Shown: positions 1 through 10,985 of the stretch, in pieces
How the letters are laid out: every line of letters starts with the position of its first letter
Position numbering within the stretch: the stretch's first letter is position 1
From: Minisyncoccota bacterium
GTDB taxonomy: Bacteria; Patescibacteriota; Minisyncoccia; Phycocordibacterales; JBAYGS01
Direction of reading: 5' to 3'
DNA length: 64,000 bases
Assembly (NCBI GenBank): GCA_041666545.1
Contig: JBAYGS010000005.1
Location: forward strand, 18,842 to 82,841
The notes under the pieces: generated by a model
What the model was told of the DNA's origin: nothing
The model's input: the letters and a program-made list of their open reading frames with translations, nothing else
Database searches by the model: none
Translations under genes and position numbers: made by a program

Positions 1-237
1 CGGAAGCCAGTTATAAAAACTCCCGAGGATCACTAAAATGTCGATGTCAAAATTACCGCCTTGCTTGGGCTGGATGCGCGTCTGACGTTGCAATGAACCA
101 ATCAGCTTTGTATTTACTGTGCCCATGTTGTTTTCGATAACGCTACGTACCGCATTGTGGCGTTGCTGAATAAGCACATTAAAAGTGTCGTTCAACTCGA
201 GGTTTGTTTTTAGCTTTTGGAATGCTTCAGCGATCAT
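1..237 (-). CDS. Pol-beta-superfamily nucleotidyltransferase, N-terminal 79 aa only; the gene runs off the left edge of the window
   Basis: Minus-strand ORF with ATG at 235-237 reads MIAEAFQKLKTNLELNDTF...IGSLQRQTRIQPKQGGNFDIDILVILGSF. It carries the G-S-x(9-13)-D-x-D nucleotidyltransferase core with an N-terminal helix. A cGAS/DncV-like (CD-NTase) or SMODS-like identity is possible but cannot be established from 79 residues. Confidence 0.45.
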   Translation of the reverse strand, partial: MIAEAFQKLKTNLELNDTFNVLIQQRHNAVRSVIENNMGTVNTKLIGSLQRQTRIQPKQGGNFDIDILVILGSFYNWLP

Positions 238-312
238 AATATGAACACATTCTACTCCTCGAGGTATTGTAATGTCAATCAAAGTAAAGTATGATTTAGA
301 GACACAAAAGCC

Positions 313-495
313 ATGAAAAAAGAACCGCAAGCATACTACACGCCAATGGAATTAGCCGAACTCCTGTCGGTCAATGTTATGACTATTTACCGGTACATCA
401 AGGCCGGCCGGCTGGCTGCTCACAAGATCGGCAAAGAGTACCGGATTGATCGCACTGAGTTTGAGAGGTTTATGACGAAAACAAAGACAAAATAA
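313..495 (+). CDS. Small helix-turn-helix DNA-binding protein, excisionase/AlpA-like family
   Basis: 60-aa ORF ...YTPMELAELLSVNVMTIYRYIKAGRLAAHKIGKEYRIDRTEFERF.... This is the typical Xis/MerR-like HTH module found beside recombinases. Confidence 0.65.
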   Translation: MKKEPQAYYTPMELAELLSVNVMTIYRYIKAGRLAAHKIGKEYRIDRTEFERFMTKTKTK

Positions 496-568
496 ATTTT
501 ATGAACGAAGCATATTCACGCGTCATTATCGATAAGAAGCTCTAGAGGGTTATGCTTCGGGAAGATTT

Positions 569-1540
569 ATGGAACAAGAAGATGTCAGAAAGTTTCTAGA
601 AGCAAGAGATATTCAAGAGGGTAAGCCGGTTTATCTTGAGTACGTGAAAAGAATGCTCACAAGACTATTTTATGCGGGTTATATCGAATATATACCCTGG
701 GAGGTTGGTAGGCGAAGAGCACAACACGAAGCCCTGATTGATTTGGTGACATATGAAAAAATACAGGAAAAACTAAAAGGTAGAACGACGACACATACAA
801 AAAATATCCTGAATGAAGACTTTCCACTTCGGAGTTTTGTCCTATGTTGTGTTTGTAAAAAGCCAGTTACCGCGAGTTGGAGTAGAGGTAGTAATGGAAA
901 GTTTCCTTATTACAGATGTAAAACAAAAGGTTGTGCAGAACATAATAAAAGTATTAGAAAAAAGGATATTGAGAGTGAGTTCGAAACTATTCTCGGAAGA
1001 ATAAAACCAAGCGAGCAAGTCTTGAATTTAACCAAGGCAATTGTTACTGACGTGTGGCGCAAGAAAGAAGCTGAAGGTGTTAATCAAAGGTTGGAGGTCG
1101 AAAGAGAGATAGGTAAGATTAAAGATGACAAGGAAAGATTTGTTCAGTTAGTTTCAAGGGCTACTAATGAAAATGTCGTAGCTTCTTACGAACAGAAAAT
1201 CGGTGCTCTTGTTGAAAGTGAGGTAGTTCTAAGAAATTCCTTGATGTCTATGGCTGAACATAAACCAAACATTGAAACTGCTTTAGATATTGTTTTTGAT
1301 TTTCTTAAAAACCCCTTAAAACAATGGCAGAAGGGTAGCATTCATACCAAGAAGTTGGTTTTAAAGTTGGTTTTTGAGCAGAATTTGGCCTACAACAAAA
1401 ATAGCGGGTTTGAAACCGCTATTTTGTCGCTCCCCTTAAGGGTATTTACCCTCCCAGAGGTTCAAAAATCGTCACTAGTGGAGATGGTGGGAGTTGAACC
1501 CACGTGCAAAGAGGATAGAAAGACGGATCTACAAGCTTAG
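569..1540 (+). pseudogene. Large serine recombinase, C-terminal fragment only (zinc-ribbon and coiled-coil part); the N-terminal resolvase catalytic domain is missing and the 3' end reads through into the tmRNA 3' region
   Basis: FVLCCVCKKPVTASWSRGSNGKFPYYRCKTKGCAEHNKSI matches the zinc beta-ribbon of large serine recombinases. An in-frame stop lies 11 codons upstream of the first Met (TAA at 533-535), so no catalytic domain can be fused. The last 20 codons (MVGVEPTCKEDRK...) are the antisense of the tmRNA T-arm. Confidence 0.55.
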
Positions 1541-1962: not shown

Positions 1963-2409
1963 TCAACTATTTTTCAAGGTTCGTCTGATTTCTCGCTCGC
2001 CTTCGCGCTTCTTGATTGTCTCGCGCTTGTCGAATTTCTTTTTACCGCGGACCACCGCAATTTCGAGTTTAATCAGGTTCTTACTATTATACACCGAAAG
2101 TGGCACGATTGTCAAACCCTTCTTACTCTCCTTCCCCAAAAGCTCGGCAATCTCTTTTTTCGTGAGCAAAAGCCGGCGGTTTCGGCGTGAATCGTAATCT
2201 TTCGGGGTGTTATTAATCTGATACGGCGGAATATGTGCACCGATGAGATAGGCTTCACCGCCCCTAATTGTAATATGCGAACCTTCAAGCGAGCCTTGGC
2301 CACTACGCAAAGATTTCACTTCCAAACCTAAAAGCTCCATCCCGGCATTGTATTTATCCAGAACTTCATAATTAAAGTGGGCTTTTCGATTTTCGATTAG
2401 ATTTGCCAT
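1963..2409 (-). CDS. smpB: SsrA-binding protein SmpB
   Basis: MANLIENRKAHFNYEVLDKYNAGMELLGLEVKSLR... is the canonical SmpB N-terminus. It lies adjacent to tmRNA. Confidence 0.9.
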   Translation of the reverse strand: MANLIENRKAHFNYEVLDKYNAGMELLGLEVKSLRSGQGSLEGSHITIRGGEAYLIGAHIPPYQINNTPKDYDSRRNRRLLLTKKEIAELLGKESKKGLTIVPLSVYNSKNLIKLEIAVVRGKKKFDKRETIKKREGEREIRRTLKNS

Positions 2410-2500: not shown

Positions 2501-2956
2501 ATGGACAACCTACTCTACTATATCGGGAATGACCAATTTTGGGTCGGCTTGTTTATCGGGGTGCTCACAATCCTTTTTCTGTCTCTTTTCGCCCCGCATC
2601 TTTTTCGGGTGTTGAGCCGGAAATGTTCCGTCTGTGACCACACCGTTTTGAAACGGCCCCGCCGAGTATTCCGGATCAAAGACCGCCCCGGTTGGTACGG
2701 CAACTTCATCTTCAAAAATTGTGAGCGGTGCCACCACATCTCCGGCATCTCCTATGATCGGCCGATGAGCAACTACCGAATTTGGTGGATAAGCTTTTGG
2801 GAGCCGGAAGTGTTTCGTTATGGCGACGACGAGAAGAAGCTTTTCCGGAACGCCGGGCTGGTCCTCCCGAGCAATTTTGAAGTCATCCAGCCGATAGCCA
2901 GACAGCCACGCTTTGTGGCCAAACTGGCCTCGGTCTGCCACGCCCTGTCGTGGTAA
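2501..2956 (+). CDS. Hypothetical protein with an N-terminal TM helix and CxxC...CxxC zinc-ribbon-like motifs
   Basis: 151-aa ORF. An antisense ORF of similar length (2510..2941) exists, so the strand choice rests on the TM plus CSVCDH...CERCHH architecture. Confidence 0.35.
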   Translation: MDNLLYYIGNDQFWVGLFIGVLTILFLSLFAPHLFRVLSRKCSVCDHTVLKRPRRVFRIKDRPGWYGNFIFKNCERCHHISGISYDRPMSNYRIWWISFWEPEVFRYGDDEKKLFRNAGLVLPSNFEVIQPIARQPRFVAKLASVCHALSW

Positions 2957-3832: not shown

Positions 3833-4420
3833 ATGACTGCCGAAAAACTGCTTGAGACAATCGAAATCTATCAGAATTTTTTTGTCGAGTCGGGTTTCAA
3901 AAAGGCCGGGCAACTGCACGACGAGCTCCCGGCCTTCCCACAGGTGAGGACGGCGGAGGCGCCATTTAGAGAGGAAGGAGCGATTCCTGAAGAACTACTT
4001 GAGGCAATCGAAACCTACCGGAAATTCTTCGTCGAATCAGGCTTCAAGAAAACTGAACACCTGCACGACGAACTTCTAACCAGCGACCAGTCCGGGTTCG
4101 AACACTGCCACGGAATGCTGGACCGAATGGTCAAGTTTGTTCAAGAAGGGCGGTTGGAAAAAGCTTTTCGCTGGCTCGGCTTTATCCAAGGTTTCCTCTG
4201 GTCAAGGCGAGTTTTCGCCCTAGCCGAACACAATGACAAGGCCGGATTTGAGCACTGCCACGGCATGCTGGACCCAATGGTTAGATTCGTTCATGAAGGA
4301 AGGTTGGAAAAAACTTTCCGTTGGCTTGGCTTTATCCAGGGTTTCCTCTGGGCCCATCGGATCTACACCTTGGCCGAAATCAAAGACCATAATCGGTCCA
4401 AAGGTCTGCTTGACCCTTAG
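3833..4420 (+). CDS. Hypothetical protein built from two pairs of internal tandem repeats (FFVESGFKK...LHDEL x2; GFEHCHGMLDxMVxFVxEGRLEKxFRWLGFIQGFLW x2)
   Basis: Direct tandem duplication is visible at both the protein and DNA level (3840-3920 vs 3990-4070; 4085-4230 vs 4235-4385). The gene starts 13 nt after the glnB stop. Confidence 0.5.
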   Translation: MTAEKLLETIEIYQNFFVESGFKKAGQLHDELPAFPQVRTAEAPFREEGAIPEELLEAIETYRKFFVESGFKKTEHLHDELLTSDQSGFEHCHGMLDRMVKFVQEGRLEKAFRWLGFIQGFLWSRRVFALAEHNDKAGFEHCHGMLDPMVRFVHEGRLEKTFRWLGFIQGFLWAHRIYTLAEIKDHNRSKGLLDP

Positions 4421-4479: not shown

Positions 4480-4935
4480 CTAGGTGCGCTCTTCGGAGTG
4501 ACGACAATCCGGATTGGTGCATTCGTAATAATGAACTCTCGAACCGCAACCGGGCGAAATGCCACCAGATTTCATCGGAGCCCAACAGACTGCACAAATT
4601 TGAGTAGGACCAGCGAGTGGCTTGGTCACAATCAGCTTACAGTGTTTACACACCTTGGCAGTCAAGACGGACTCGCCAGGCTTCCGAACCCGATGTTCCA
4701 GAAACTGGTGACAGCACTTGCTTTGGATCTCGTGGATCAACTTGAAGATTCGGTGCCAGCGGAGAAACAAACTTTCGGCGGTCCCCCGCAGGAGATCGAG
4801 CTCGCCGCGAATTTGCGAATCAGTCGGAAAATTTTCCGGACCGAGAAAGGCGCGGGTTTGTTCCAACGATTGGAAGTAGGCCCAGACCCATTTAAGTCGT
4901 TCCAGCTGTTCTTCGGAAATTTCAGTTTCATTCAT
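4480..4935 (-). CDS. Hypothetical Cys-rich (zinc-ribbon-like) protein
   Basis: 151 aa with CKHCKL...CAVCW...CTNPDCRH clusters. It was chosen over the overlapping plus-strand ORF 4444..4992 on motif coherence only. Confidence 0.35.
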   Translation of the reverse strand: MNETEISEEQLERLKWVWAYFQSLEQTRAFLGPENFPTDSQIRGELDLLRGTAESLFLRWHRIFKLIHEIQSKCCHQFLEHRVRKPGESVLTAKVCKHCKLIVTKPLAGPTQICAVCWAPMKSGGISPGCGSRVHYYECTNPDCRHSEERT

Positions 4936-5044: not shown

Positions 5045-5554
5045 TTGATTAAAGCCAGAATCAATCACCAAATCCGAGCCAGTGAACTTCGAGTTATCGG
5101 CCCCGAGGGCGAAAATTTAGGCGTCATTACCCTATCCGAAGCCATTAAGAAAGCTTCCGACCTCGGTTTAGACCTAATTGAAATTTCTCCAAACGCCAAT
5201 CCGCCAATCGGCAAGATTATGGATTTCGGAAAATACCAGTACGACGAGAAGAAAAAAGAAAAAGAGGCTAAATCACACGCCCACACCGTCGAAGTCAAAA
5301 CCATCCAAATTAAAATCGGTACTGGTGAACACGACCTTGGCCTGAAAGCCAAGAAAATTTCAGAGTGGCTGAAGGAAGGCAACCGAGTCAAAATCGAATT
5401 GTTCTTGATGGGCCGAGCCAAATATCTAGACAAAAAATTCTTGGAGGAGCGACTGGAAAGAGTACTTAAATTCGTCACTGAAGAGTACAAAATGACCGAA
5501 GCCCCCCAAAAAGGCCTAAAAGGCTTGTCGGTGATGATTGAGAAGAAAAAATAA
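5045..5554 (+). CDS. infC: Translation initiation factor IF-3
   Basis: ...ELRVIGPEGENLGVITLSEAIKKASDLGLDLIEISPNANPPIGKIMDFGKYQY... is canonical IF-3. The first codon appears to be TTG, and IF-3 genes typically use non-AUG starts. Confidence 0.85.
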   Translation: MIKARINHQIRASELRVIGPEGENLGVITLSEAIKKASDLGLDLIEISPNANPPIGKIMDFGKYQYDEKKKEKEAKSHAHTVEVKTIQIKIGTGEHDLGLKAKKISEWLKEGNRVKIELFLMGRAKYLDKKFLEERLERVLKFVTEEYKMTEAPQKGLKGLSVMIEKKK

Positions 5555-5706
5555 TAATACCAATCAACTAATTCAACGCCAATCAACTAATGACGAATAG
5601 TAGAATTAGGATATTCGTAGATTGGAATAAGATTAGTAGATTAGTATTTCACATCTAGACTTTTTTAAGCCAATAGTGTAATATTCCAGTCTGTTATTAA
5701 ACCCGT

Positions 5707-10378: not shown

Positions 10379-10985
10379 ACTCCAAGATTCCCTCCAAATT
10401 AGCATCGTAAAGAATCTGCTCTTGAACCAATTTGTAGTCAATAAGCTCATCTTTTTTAAACCAGTGCATGATTTCATTTTCCGCTTCCTTAACCGAGCCG
10501 GCCGAGTGGACCAAATTGCGGACCGCCCGAACATCATCATCGGACATTTTGTAAGAATCTAAAACAAAATCCCCCCGAATCGTTCCAACATCGGAGGTCA
10601 AAGGTTCGGTCCCGCCGGTAATCTTGCGCACAATTGCAACCGCATGAGCCCCTTGCCAGACCATCGCAATCACCGGGCCGGAAGAAAGATATTTTTTGAG
10701 CTTGGCTAAAATCATCTCCGTCACTTTGAAAGGATTGCCCTCGAAAGGGTGCTTCATCCCCTTGTCCTGGTAGGCTTTAATATTTTTCTCGCCGGTAAGT
10801 CTTCGCCACTCCGGATCAAGAGTATAATGTTTCTCGACAAACTCCGGACTAACCGTCATCATTTTTAGGGCTACCATCTTAAGCCCGGACCTTTCATAAC
10901 GTTTAATAATCTCGCCGATTAGAGTCCGCTGAATACCATCCGGCTTGATAACCACTAGAGTTCTTTCGTTTTTGGGATGAGGCAT
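10377..10985 (-). CDS. ndk: Nucleoside diphosphate kinase, long form (about 200 aa)
   Basis: ERTLVVIKPDGIQRTLIGEIIKRYERSGLKMVALKMM is the canonical NDK N-terminus. Confidence 0.85.
   Translation of the reverse strand: MPHPKNERTLVVIKPDGIQRTLIGEIIKRYERSGLKMVALKMMTVSPEFVEKHYTLDPEWRRLTGEKNIKAYQDKGMKHPFEGNPFKVTEMILAKLKKYLSSGPVIAMVWQGAHAVAIVRKITGGTEPLTSDVGTIRGDFVLDSYKMSDDDVRAVRNLVHSAGSVKEAENEIMHWFKKDELIDYKLVQEQILYDANLEGILE

Follow-up and report, generated by a model that had tools for sequence, protein, structure and literature searches.

Transfer RNA (tRNA) and transfer-messenger RNA (tmRNA) genes, together termed tDNAs, are classic landing sites of genomic islands, a role attributed to tyrosine integrases. 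In the Islander work of 2014, only tyrosine integrases were known to target tDNAs (PMC4383910). Serine integrases act as dimers on attP and attB, which synapse, are cut at a central dinucleotide and exchange strands, and short cores within sites of 40-50 bp are usual (PMC3783163). A large survey of large serine recombinases (LSRs) is without any mention of tRNA (PMC10083194), while among the tycheposons and cryptic elements of Prochlorococcus 27 of 937 tRNA/tmRNA-proximal elements carry an LSR, with no detail of the site (bioRxiv 10.1101/2020.12.28.424599). Here, a stretch of 64,000 nt from contig JBAYGS010000005.1, hereafter the window, was analysed; its host is a Candidatus Paceibacterota genome of the candidate phyla radiation (CPR), and its first 1,540 nt bring an LSR gene (int) into contact with the 3' end of the tmRNA gene, ssrA. 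The locus is very probably a 4.39-kb island carrying a cyclic oligonucleotide-based anti-phage signalling system (CBASS) at the tmRNA 3' end, of an element type moved by an LSR and now immobile, the catalytic half of the recombinase having been lost.

Contigs matching the window were retrieved by exact look-up of the window's own proteins. They comprise an ENA contig of 83.7 kb (ERZ27249449; termed L001), which shows 0 mismatches to the window across 11,540 nt and an identical junction, a JGI contig (3300037810; L004) with 99.97% identity, and a Logan contig of 1,624 nt (SRR6484324; L002) that is 100% identical and spans the truncation point of the recombinase gene. The tmRNA gene is full length and extends over 1476-1859 on the minus strand (Rfam RF00023; 118.9 bits, gathering threshold 47, model positions 1-374); it was missed by ARAGORN. 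The two ends of the island share the core GTGGA, in tmRNA sense TCCAC, which spans the final three acceptor-strand bases, the discriminator A and C74. The int-proximal copy, located by junction alignment, motif search and att reconstruction, lies at 1478-1482 of the window, where the plus strand reads ...CAAAAAnnnnnCTA-GTGGAG-ATG..., and the int-distal copy at L001 6517-6521, ~2.9 kb left of the window start. The island thus delimited is 4,393 bp long, with window 1-1540 as its right-hand third, and contains the genes of a 315-aa, a 95-aa and a 100-aa protein, the CBASS pair, a helix-turn-helix (HTH) gene and the recombinase remnant. A preliminary description of this DNA, made from its letters alone, had placed an integrative element at the tmRNA 3' end, and both junctions, mapped against intact relatives, bear this out. 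Every feature it listed was recovered at the coordinates given.

Assignment of the left end rests on an exact 13-mer, the sequence GTGGAC and a host-like outer flank. The 13-mer TTGGAACCAACTA lies just inside the end and occurs once per locus, upstream of int and on the same strand, exactly in L001 (6537), L006 and L014 and with 1 mismatch in L005 and L007; by estimate, an exact match would arise by chance at ~3e-4 per locus. The int-distal ends of these five loci resemble one another over ~100 nt that start at GTGGAC and run inward, and on its outer side they are unrelated. In unoccupied CPR ssrA genes a terminator hairpin directly follows the gene, and in many of them it is followed by GTGGAGATG, a covarying hairpin and GCGGGAATCGAAAG. 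In the intact relative L006, that terminator and motif stand 5.3 kb to the left of ssrA and are oriented as the tmRNA is (nhmmer E 1e-10). When the outer flanks of the window island are joined, the reconstructed attB reads ...CCCACCATCTCCACCACTTCGCTCCGTAGT..., restoring ...CATCTCCACCA with an encoded CCA, and the reconstructed attP reads ...TCAAAAATCGTCACTAGTGGACACCCTGTCGAC...; among the sampled unoccupied sites, the L001 outer flank is closest to locus L126. A direct repeat of 15-25 nt of the tmRNA end, expected in the preliminary description as attL/attR, was searched for and not found: no repeat of at least 14 nt of the tmRNA 3' end was present on the far side in L001 1-12000, and almost none within 10 kb in 53 loci. 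The long att repeat was therefore dropped, the junctions sharing 5 bp only. A short shared core without a long repeat is what is expected of a serine recombinase. A reading of the P' arm motif TTGGAACCAAC as a mimic of the T-loop, displaced outward by 5 bp on the model of the LI integrase (PMC3783163), was also considered; the offset here is ~10 bp, and the 5-bp model is not supported as it stands.

The recombinase gene is homologous to LSRs over 536-1540 on the plus strand, which corresponds to residues ~187-520 of intact relatives, and its longest open reading frame (ORF), of 323 aa, runs from the ATG at 569 to 1540. Database search revealed 154 relatives, most of them 510-535 aa long with Resolvase, Recombinase and Zn_ribbon domains; these full-length proteins align with 97% of the remnant at 70-73% identity, and the remnant starts at their residue ~187-200. 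The DNA is homologous to intact genes from window 524-536 onward (gene nt ~549-560), and the protein sequence from 536 onward. Upstream of the ATG, 11 further homologous codons (EALEGYASGRF) are ended by an in-frame stop, the TAA at 533-535. It stands where the family has a conserved Lys codon (...VKEALEGFASGRF...) and is the stop that had been reported 11 codons before the first Met. The remnant retains part of the recombinase domain (PF07508; positions 24-102 of 102, 19.6 bits against a cutoff of 21.1), the domain being cut by the deletion, followed by the zinc ribbon (Zn_ribbon_recom, PF13408; 27.9 bits, cutoff 25.3, residues 86-139) and a C-terminal extension. Cysteines C93, C96, C117 and C122 of the ribbon are invariant in the family alignment, and a coiled-coil region inserted in it is predicted at residues ~160-230 from its position and heptad-like charged sequence. 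Against the integrase family phrog_95, the remnant covers positions 283-552 of 651.

The catalytic domain (PF00239) is present in the relatives, where its best PDB match is the TP901-1 integrase (3BVP), and absent from the remnant; tblastn of the 64-kb window and the adjoining 9.5 kb on its left detected none. The N-terminal 135-150 profile positions that the remnant lacks are those matching the catalytic domains of the TP901-1 integrase and resolvase in the PDB. The proposal of a truncated LSR reduced to its C-terminal part is thereby upheld: alignment to full-length LSRs puts the loss at the whole resolvase/catalytic domain, and a catalytic domain in frame upstream, which would have meant an error, was looked for without success. 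The small ORFs that lie directly upstream of int in intact elements (48-65 aa and ~100 aa) are also missing from the island. A short ORF at 501-545 (MNEAYSRV...) was tried as a relic of the integrase N-terminus (MQKAIIYCRVSS) and rejected, since its alignment to seven int 5' ends was no better than that of shuffles. Taken at the level of sequence, the gene is judged to be the remnant of an LSR family member and not a functional member. A shorter remnant, of 213 aa, occupies the same position in L014.

At its 3' end the recombinase ORF shares 65 nt with the tmRNA gene, equal to its final 21 codons and stop; the shared stretch spans the 3' strand of the acceptor, the T-arm and ~20 nt more, in agreement with the earlier remark that the last codons of the recombinase are antisense to the tmRNA T-arm. 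A C-terminal tail ...LVEMxGIEPxC is common to the recombinase relatives; it does not reflect protein conservation, because it is encoded antisense to the acceptor strand and T-arm of the tmRNA. After the discriminator, ssrA of the window encodes CUA rather than CCA, which results from the insertion. As a general crossover marker CUA was discarded, most unoccupied CPR ssrA genes being without an encoded CCA. The tag frame of the tmRNA, read by eye, is AKTALSKAKSVVSPFFGAQDFAFAYVRS followed by a stop and ends in VRS; those of relatives end in A-x-A (for example ...FAYAIA in L014).

Further constraint at the DNA level is seen just ahead of the tmRNA gene. Among eight CPR genes, synonymous-codon identity is mostly 0.3-0.5 and climbs to 0.67-0.92 over the ~35 codons that precede the tmRNA gene. 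This segment includes a perfect 10-bp hairpin at 1396-1431 (minus strand), with arms AAAATAGCGG/CCGCTATTTT followed by a U-rich tract on the tmRNA strand, which is conserved in 11 of 11 relatives and sits where synonymous-codon identity is highest (0.92, with ~0.4 as background). The hairpin sequence is invariant and so offers no covariation, and a simple terminator scan did not call it. Since the insertion removes the native terminator, the hairpin and U-tract are proposed as a replacement ssrA terminator inside the recombinase coding sequence, a role they probably fulfil. A 27-nt block at 1442-1468 (plus strand; GTATTTACCCTCCCAGAGGTTCAAAAA / GTATTTACCCTCCCAGAGGCTCAAAAA), near-invariant at synonymous sites, shows 0-3 mismatches in 11 loci, while the int genes are 69-74% identical as DNA. 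On the element side, this block presumably forms the arm of the attachment site (P-arm); no inverted copy of it was found at the far end at up to 7 mismatches.

These features suggest the following order of events. The parent family consists of small elements (3.4-6.1 kb) whose final gene encodes the recombinase and is directed into the convergent tmRNA gene; the related elements are 3.4 kb (L014), 4.8 kb (L005), 5.2 kb (L006) and 6.1 kb (L007). Recombination would take place in the 5-bp core GTGGA at the very end of the tmRNA coding sequence, so that insertion would leave the tmRNA body intact while replacing the sequence from C75 onward, native terminator included. The recombinase ORF runs into host DNA and ends antisense within the T-arm region, and the hairpin and U-tract in its last ~35 codons would serve as the new ssrA terminator. 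One attB half-site would be the tDNA acceptor/T-arm and the other the variable downstream flank, and the C-terminal tail of the integrase would change between the integrated and excised states. A deletion would then have removed the first ~185 recombinase codons, with the catalytic domain and serine nucleophile, and the small conserved upstream genes. Because these were deleted, the element would be unable to excise or integrate by itself in vivo and would persist as a fixed island.

The cargo of the island is a single co-directional cluster of five genes headed by the CBASS pair. The gene at the window edge (1-237, minus strand) is the start of a cGAS/DncV-like nucleotidyltransferase (CD-NTase), the CBASS cyclase; the fragment, read from 237 to 1, translates as MIAEAFQKLK...GSLQRQTRIQPKQGGNFDIDILV, 79 codons, and runs off the edge to continue for 690 nt, giving 308 aa in total. 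Beyond the left edge, likewise on the minus strand, follow the rest of the cyclase gene and those of 158-aa, 100-aa, 95-aa and 315-aa proteins. The edge fragment matches Pfam SMODS with 38.6 bits (cutoff 26.5; 50.8 bits at full length) and PADLOC CBASS cyclases with an E of 1.3e-14, while the full-length protein matches PADLOC Cyclase PDLC00823 over profile positions 4-283 of 285 (E 4.6e-38). Residues G47, S48, D64 and D66 of the GS and DxD motifs are invariant among 12 homologues, and at the third acidic position E128 is nearly invariant and D135 invariant. The nearest solved chains are 6P8U and 6P82, annotated 'Nucleotidyltransferase', with a full-length alignment. These matches confirm the CD-NTase/SMODS-type identity given to the edge gene in the preliminary description, and the leftward extension and profile searches for which it had called exclude a housekeeping nucleotidyltransferase. 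The CBASS effector that it expected just left of the window is also there: the 158-aa gene overlaps the cyclase gene by 4 nt and encodes a SLATT two-transmembrane (2TM) effector (PADLOC 2TM Effector, E 1.6e-16; NCBIfam SLATT_4, 68.4 bits, cutoff 55).

Profile searches of the cyclase neighbours returned no match to Cap2/Cap3 or HORMA/TRIP13 accessory families, and on its gene content the cyclase-SLATT pair is assigned to type I CBASS. Upon phage infection, the CD-NTase would produce a cyclic nucleotide signal and the nucleotide-activated SLATT effector would then damage the membrane, leading to abortive infection. The two-gene cassette recurs in other defence contexts, namely with Vsr/MutH/Dcm, with a type III-like methylase/helicase and with LexA-like/SIR2 genes, and neither the HTH gene nor the three downstream genes are conserved with it elsewhere. 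The latter follow the pair with gaps of 4-23 nt (L001 7944-8246, 7644-7931 and 6692-7639, all minus strand). The 100-aa and 95-aa proteins are small with hydrophobic segments; like the 315-aa protein, they lack matches in Pfam, NCBIfam, PADLOC and PHROG. Within the 315-aa sequence, LRNQLAH fits an Rx4H pattern that recalls HEPN nucleases.

The association of this recombinase with tDNAs extends across its family. At 61 of 80 genome loci with relatives (30-73% identical), the recombinase ORF ends inside a convergent tRNA or tmRNA gene called by ARAGORN; the remaining 19 are mostly contig-end cuts or, as in the window, tmRNA genes that ARAGORN missed. The target is tmRNA in Patescibacteria, Margulisiibacteriota and Peribacteria, and tRNA-Arg, -Ala, -Tyr, -Leu, -Ser, -Thr, -Val or -Met in Alpha-, Beta- and Gammaproteobacteria, Nitrospirota and others. 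A sample independent of the recombinase was obtained by scanning metagenomes for the CPR-type tmRNA 3' end (120 loci, ~109 with enough flank), and 15 of these ~109 ends (~14%) carry such an LSR antisense, with at least three junction types. The design recurs in Micavibrio: in loci L023 and L039, the int-distal junctions have cores of 11-15 bp across the CCA end, followed by the motif GGTTCCAACC / TTGGAACCAA. The Micavibrio metagenome-assembled genome L022 contains, at ~4700-4880, the 3' end of a second recombinase, the core TGGTGGAC and an element left end; this junction is attP-like and lies inside a tandem array formed by two elements at a single tRNA-Ala gene. Free, unintegrated elements were searched for in three collections: IMG/VR gave one distant match, GenBank phages only the resolvase-type integrases of Wolbachia WO (25-27% identity), and plasmids only two partial remnants in megaplasmid-size records (1.2-1.5 Mb) of Tritonibacter and Paracoccus.

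Two further groups were noted at CPR tmRNA ends. A second recombinase subfamily (38-43% identical) lies antisense at L093, L103, L119, L151, L167, L168, L203 and L209; its junction consists of a hairpin, with arms that vary between loci but preserve their complementarity, and then TCAAA(A/T)A. A third type, more distant at 23-25% identity, shows the junction ATTAGTGAACTTTTTGCATAG in L110, L163, L207 and L212.

It is tentatively proposed, at slightly less than even odds, that these recombinases form a cross-phylum clade of LSRs whose chromosomal attachment site is the acceptor/CCA end of a tRNA or tmRNA gene. The core would be ~5-15 bp long and one attB half-site would be the universally conserved acceptor/T-arm sequence. 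The integrase ORF would terminate inside the target gene and the element would supply a replacement terminator for the RNA gene. The CPR and Micavibrio members would act as miniature cargo shuttles of 3-6 kb, occupying about one tmRNA gene in seven.

Several observations weigh against the view of the window locus as an LSR-moved CBASS island that has become fixed. The uninterrupted frame of 323 codons points to a possible recent deletion or to a retained function. No empty site of the same species was recovered, an exact SmpB look-up returning the same contigs only, so that attB is reconstructed and not observed. The 5-bp core is too short for the crossover dinucleotide to be placed. The int-distal end is only 55-59% identical to those of the other four loci, which are 74-79% identical among themselves. 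The cyclase scores 94.9 bits against the NCBIfam CBASS_cyclase_b equivalog, below the cutoff of 200, and is thus a divergent cyclase and not a member of that equivalog. Finally, L067 contains a 28-nt direct repeat of a tRNA-Ser 3' end (1706-1733 and 10833-10860; 89% identity), 9.1 kb upstream of the tRNA gene that the recombinase occupies, which is a misfit with a core of 5-11 bp and may reflect a different, tyrosine-integrase tandem island or a different crossover position.

A non-autonomous island could nevertheless be mobile in trans, through an intact recombinase of the family located elsewhere in the genome or brought in by another element. Retention of both junctions and of the 27-nt P-arm block is consistent with such mobility, as are the frequency of the recombinase family in CPR metagenomes and the tandem array of L022, which shows that two elements can share one cell. 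Against this stand the lack of a second family member in the 64-kb window or the left flank, an int-distal arm more diverged than those of intact elements, and the loss of the small conserved genes, candidate directionality factors, that precede int in those elements. The junctions are, moreover, the same in three samples, with no variant found. Mobility in trans is thus considered unlikely, and the fixed island remains the preferred reading.

The HTH gene (313-495, plus strand) encodes a 60-aa DNA-binding protein that matches Pfam HTH_17 with 57.1 bits, the NCBIfam 'excisionase family' TIGR01764 with 57.2 bits, and PHROG families of excisionases and regulators. It is separated from the cyclase operon by a divergent spacer of 75 nt (238-312) with sigma-70-like hexamers on both strands: on the minus strand, TTGACA-18-TAGAAT at 278-249 agrees with 11 of 12 consensus positions, and on the plus strand a site at 267-295 agrees with 9 of 12. 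These are consensus matches only, and within 238-312 they are no more numerous than in shuffled sequence. That the protein is the excisionase of the element, its recombination directionality factor, would fit its TIGR01764 and PHROG matches and the location of its gene immediately upstream of the recombinase remnant on the same strand. Intact elements of the LSR family are, however, without a homologue by tblastn in 80 loci, the sole hit (L037) lying outside the element, and carry unrelated small ORFs upstream of int instead; divergent pairing with the CBASS operon across a 75-nt spacer fits a regulator. An excisionase role is accordingly held to be improbable. Of the earlier description as an excisionase-like HTH gene, the domain and family match stands, and the part of a directionality factor falls away, no linkage to the LSR family or to the CBASS cassette being found. 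The gene is not conserved with the CBASS cassette either, and the protein may be an operon regulator or the relic of another element.

Persistence of the recombinase frame also raises the question of a retained DNA-binding protein that, for example, blocks super-integration or regulates neighbouring genes. Isolated C-terminal domains of LSRs do bind att half-sites alone (PMC3783163), the 323-codon frame is open in DNA of 38% G+C without internal stops or frameshifts, and it is identical in three assemblies. Nevertheless, a TAA stands at the very start of the homologous frame, the first ATG lies inside the recombinase domain, and no promoter-like site was found ahead of the remnant. Part of the apparent conservation is due to the overlapping tmRNA gene and the hairpin, and the more decayed remnant of L014, in the same position, fits ordinary decay. 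Such retention is regarded as very unlikely. An assembly or frame artefact that hides an intact gene is scarcely credible, even for a metagenome-assembled contig, because three independent assemblies share the junction, the ~30-40 nt between the HTH stop and the first homologous base leave no space for 550 nt, and no catalytic-domain coding sequence occurs within 73 kb.

Outside the island, the tmRNA gene is accompanied by its partner smpB (1963-2409, minus strand; Pfam SmpB, 172.9 bits), which belongs to the host context. Farther left in L001 lie a GIY-YIG gene, a 151-aa gene, ftsH and tRNA-Ile, of which the first two are host genes given the position of the left junction at L001 6517-6521. 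A Cys-rich protein of 151 aa beside smpB (window 2501-2956, plus strand) resembles, by eye, a 191-aa protein beside ftsH in L012 (4808-5383, minus strand), and ftsH is found on opposite sides of the ssrA-smpB pair among Paceibacterota loci; this suggests rearrangements around the ssrA-smpB locus. At 3833-4420 (plus strand), a 195-aa ORF contains an internal duplication, with segments ETIEIYQNFFVESGFKK... and EAIETYRKFFVESGFKK... each followed by a GFEHCHGMLD...EGRLEK.FRWLGFIQGFLW repeat.

The motif that follows many unoccupied ssrA genes is situated 40-50 nt after the tmRNA 3' end in L095, L096, L099, L101, L121, L149, L152, L164, L181, L190, L197, L199, L202 and L206, and the same motif is present in L006 at 5536-5630 (minus strand). 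It consists of GTGGAGATG(A/G)G, a 9-bp hairpin with compensatory changes at 9 of 9 pairs, and CGTGCGG(G)AATCGAAAG, and it resembles an inverted tmRNA acceptor/T-arm with an inserted hairpin. Comparison with Rfam returned nothing at gathering level, only sub-threshold tmRNA_permuted matches of 27-30 bits, and the motif may be an undescribed structured RNA.

The locus is now delimited as a 4.4-kb defence island of a CPR bacterium, with a predicted type I CBASS. It is unremarkable as a decayed defence island; the newer point is the clade of tDNA-end LSRs and the design of its attachment site. In the literature searched, outside which Mageeney et al. 2020 (NAR 48:4052) falls, there is no description of serine integrases recombining at tDNA ends, and such calls may already be contained in the TIGER database. 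If the clade holds, it would overturn the rule that only tyrosine integrases target tDNAs, and island finders that seek displaced tDNA fragments would miss these elements with their 5-bp core. It would also open a window onto very small elements that move defence genes among CPR bacteria, and provide serine integrases with a natural target that ranks among the best-conserved sequences of bacterial genomes, attractive for broad-host-range genome engineering.

The island combines traits of a classical tDNA genomic island with those of a serine-integrase element. Compared with the LSRs of phages and integrative elements (TP901-1, Bxb1, phiC31, A118/LI), the intact relatives have the same order of a resolvase-type catalytic domain, a recombinase domain and a zinc ribbon with a predicted coiled-coil insertion, and share with them very short identity between the recombining sites and an integrase gene at the element edge. 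They differ in that they target a tRNA or tmRNA gene at its extreme 3' end and not a protein-coding or intergenic site, that the ORF crosses the junction into the target, so that its tail would differ between integrated and excised states, and that ~90 extra residues follow the predicted coiled-coil region; the window copy is, in addition, without the catalytic domain. With the tDNA islands of tyrosine integrases (Islander; 'traffic at the tmRNA gene'), the family shares the ssrA target, the adjoining integrase gene, the restoration of a working RNA gene and accessory or defence cargo. In contrast with those islands, it leaves no displaced tDNA fragment of 15-50 nt at the far end but a core of 5 bp, or of 5-15 bp at the Micavibrio loci, and the crossover would be at the acceptor/CCA end and not at the anticodon loop or T-loop. 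The Prochlorococcus tycheposons, compared here by description and not by homology, are likewise small cargo-carrying elements at tRNA and tmRNA genes, in a different phylum.

Type I CBASS systems with 2TM/SLATT effectors present the same SMODS CD-NTase with GS...DxD and a 4-nt overlap with a SLATT_4 protein; the window system is set apart by its CPR host, a cyclase below the equivalog cutoff and three extra genes in the cluster. Finally, IntP of myxophage Mx8 is a tyrosine integrase. Its attP lies inside the int gene (cited in PMC4383910), and integration alters the C-terminal coding end of that gene, as is proposed for the family described here. The window family is distinguished from it by consisting of serine recombinases in which only the last ~20 codons would be exchanged.

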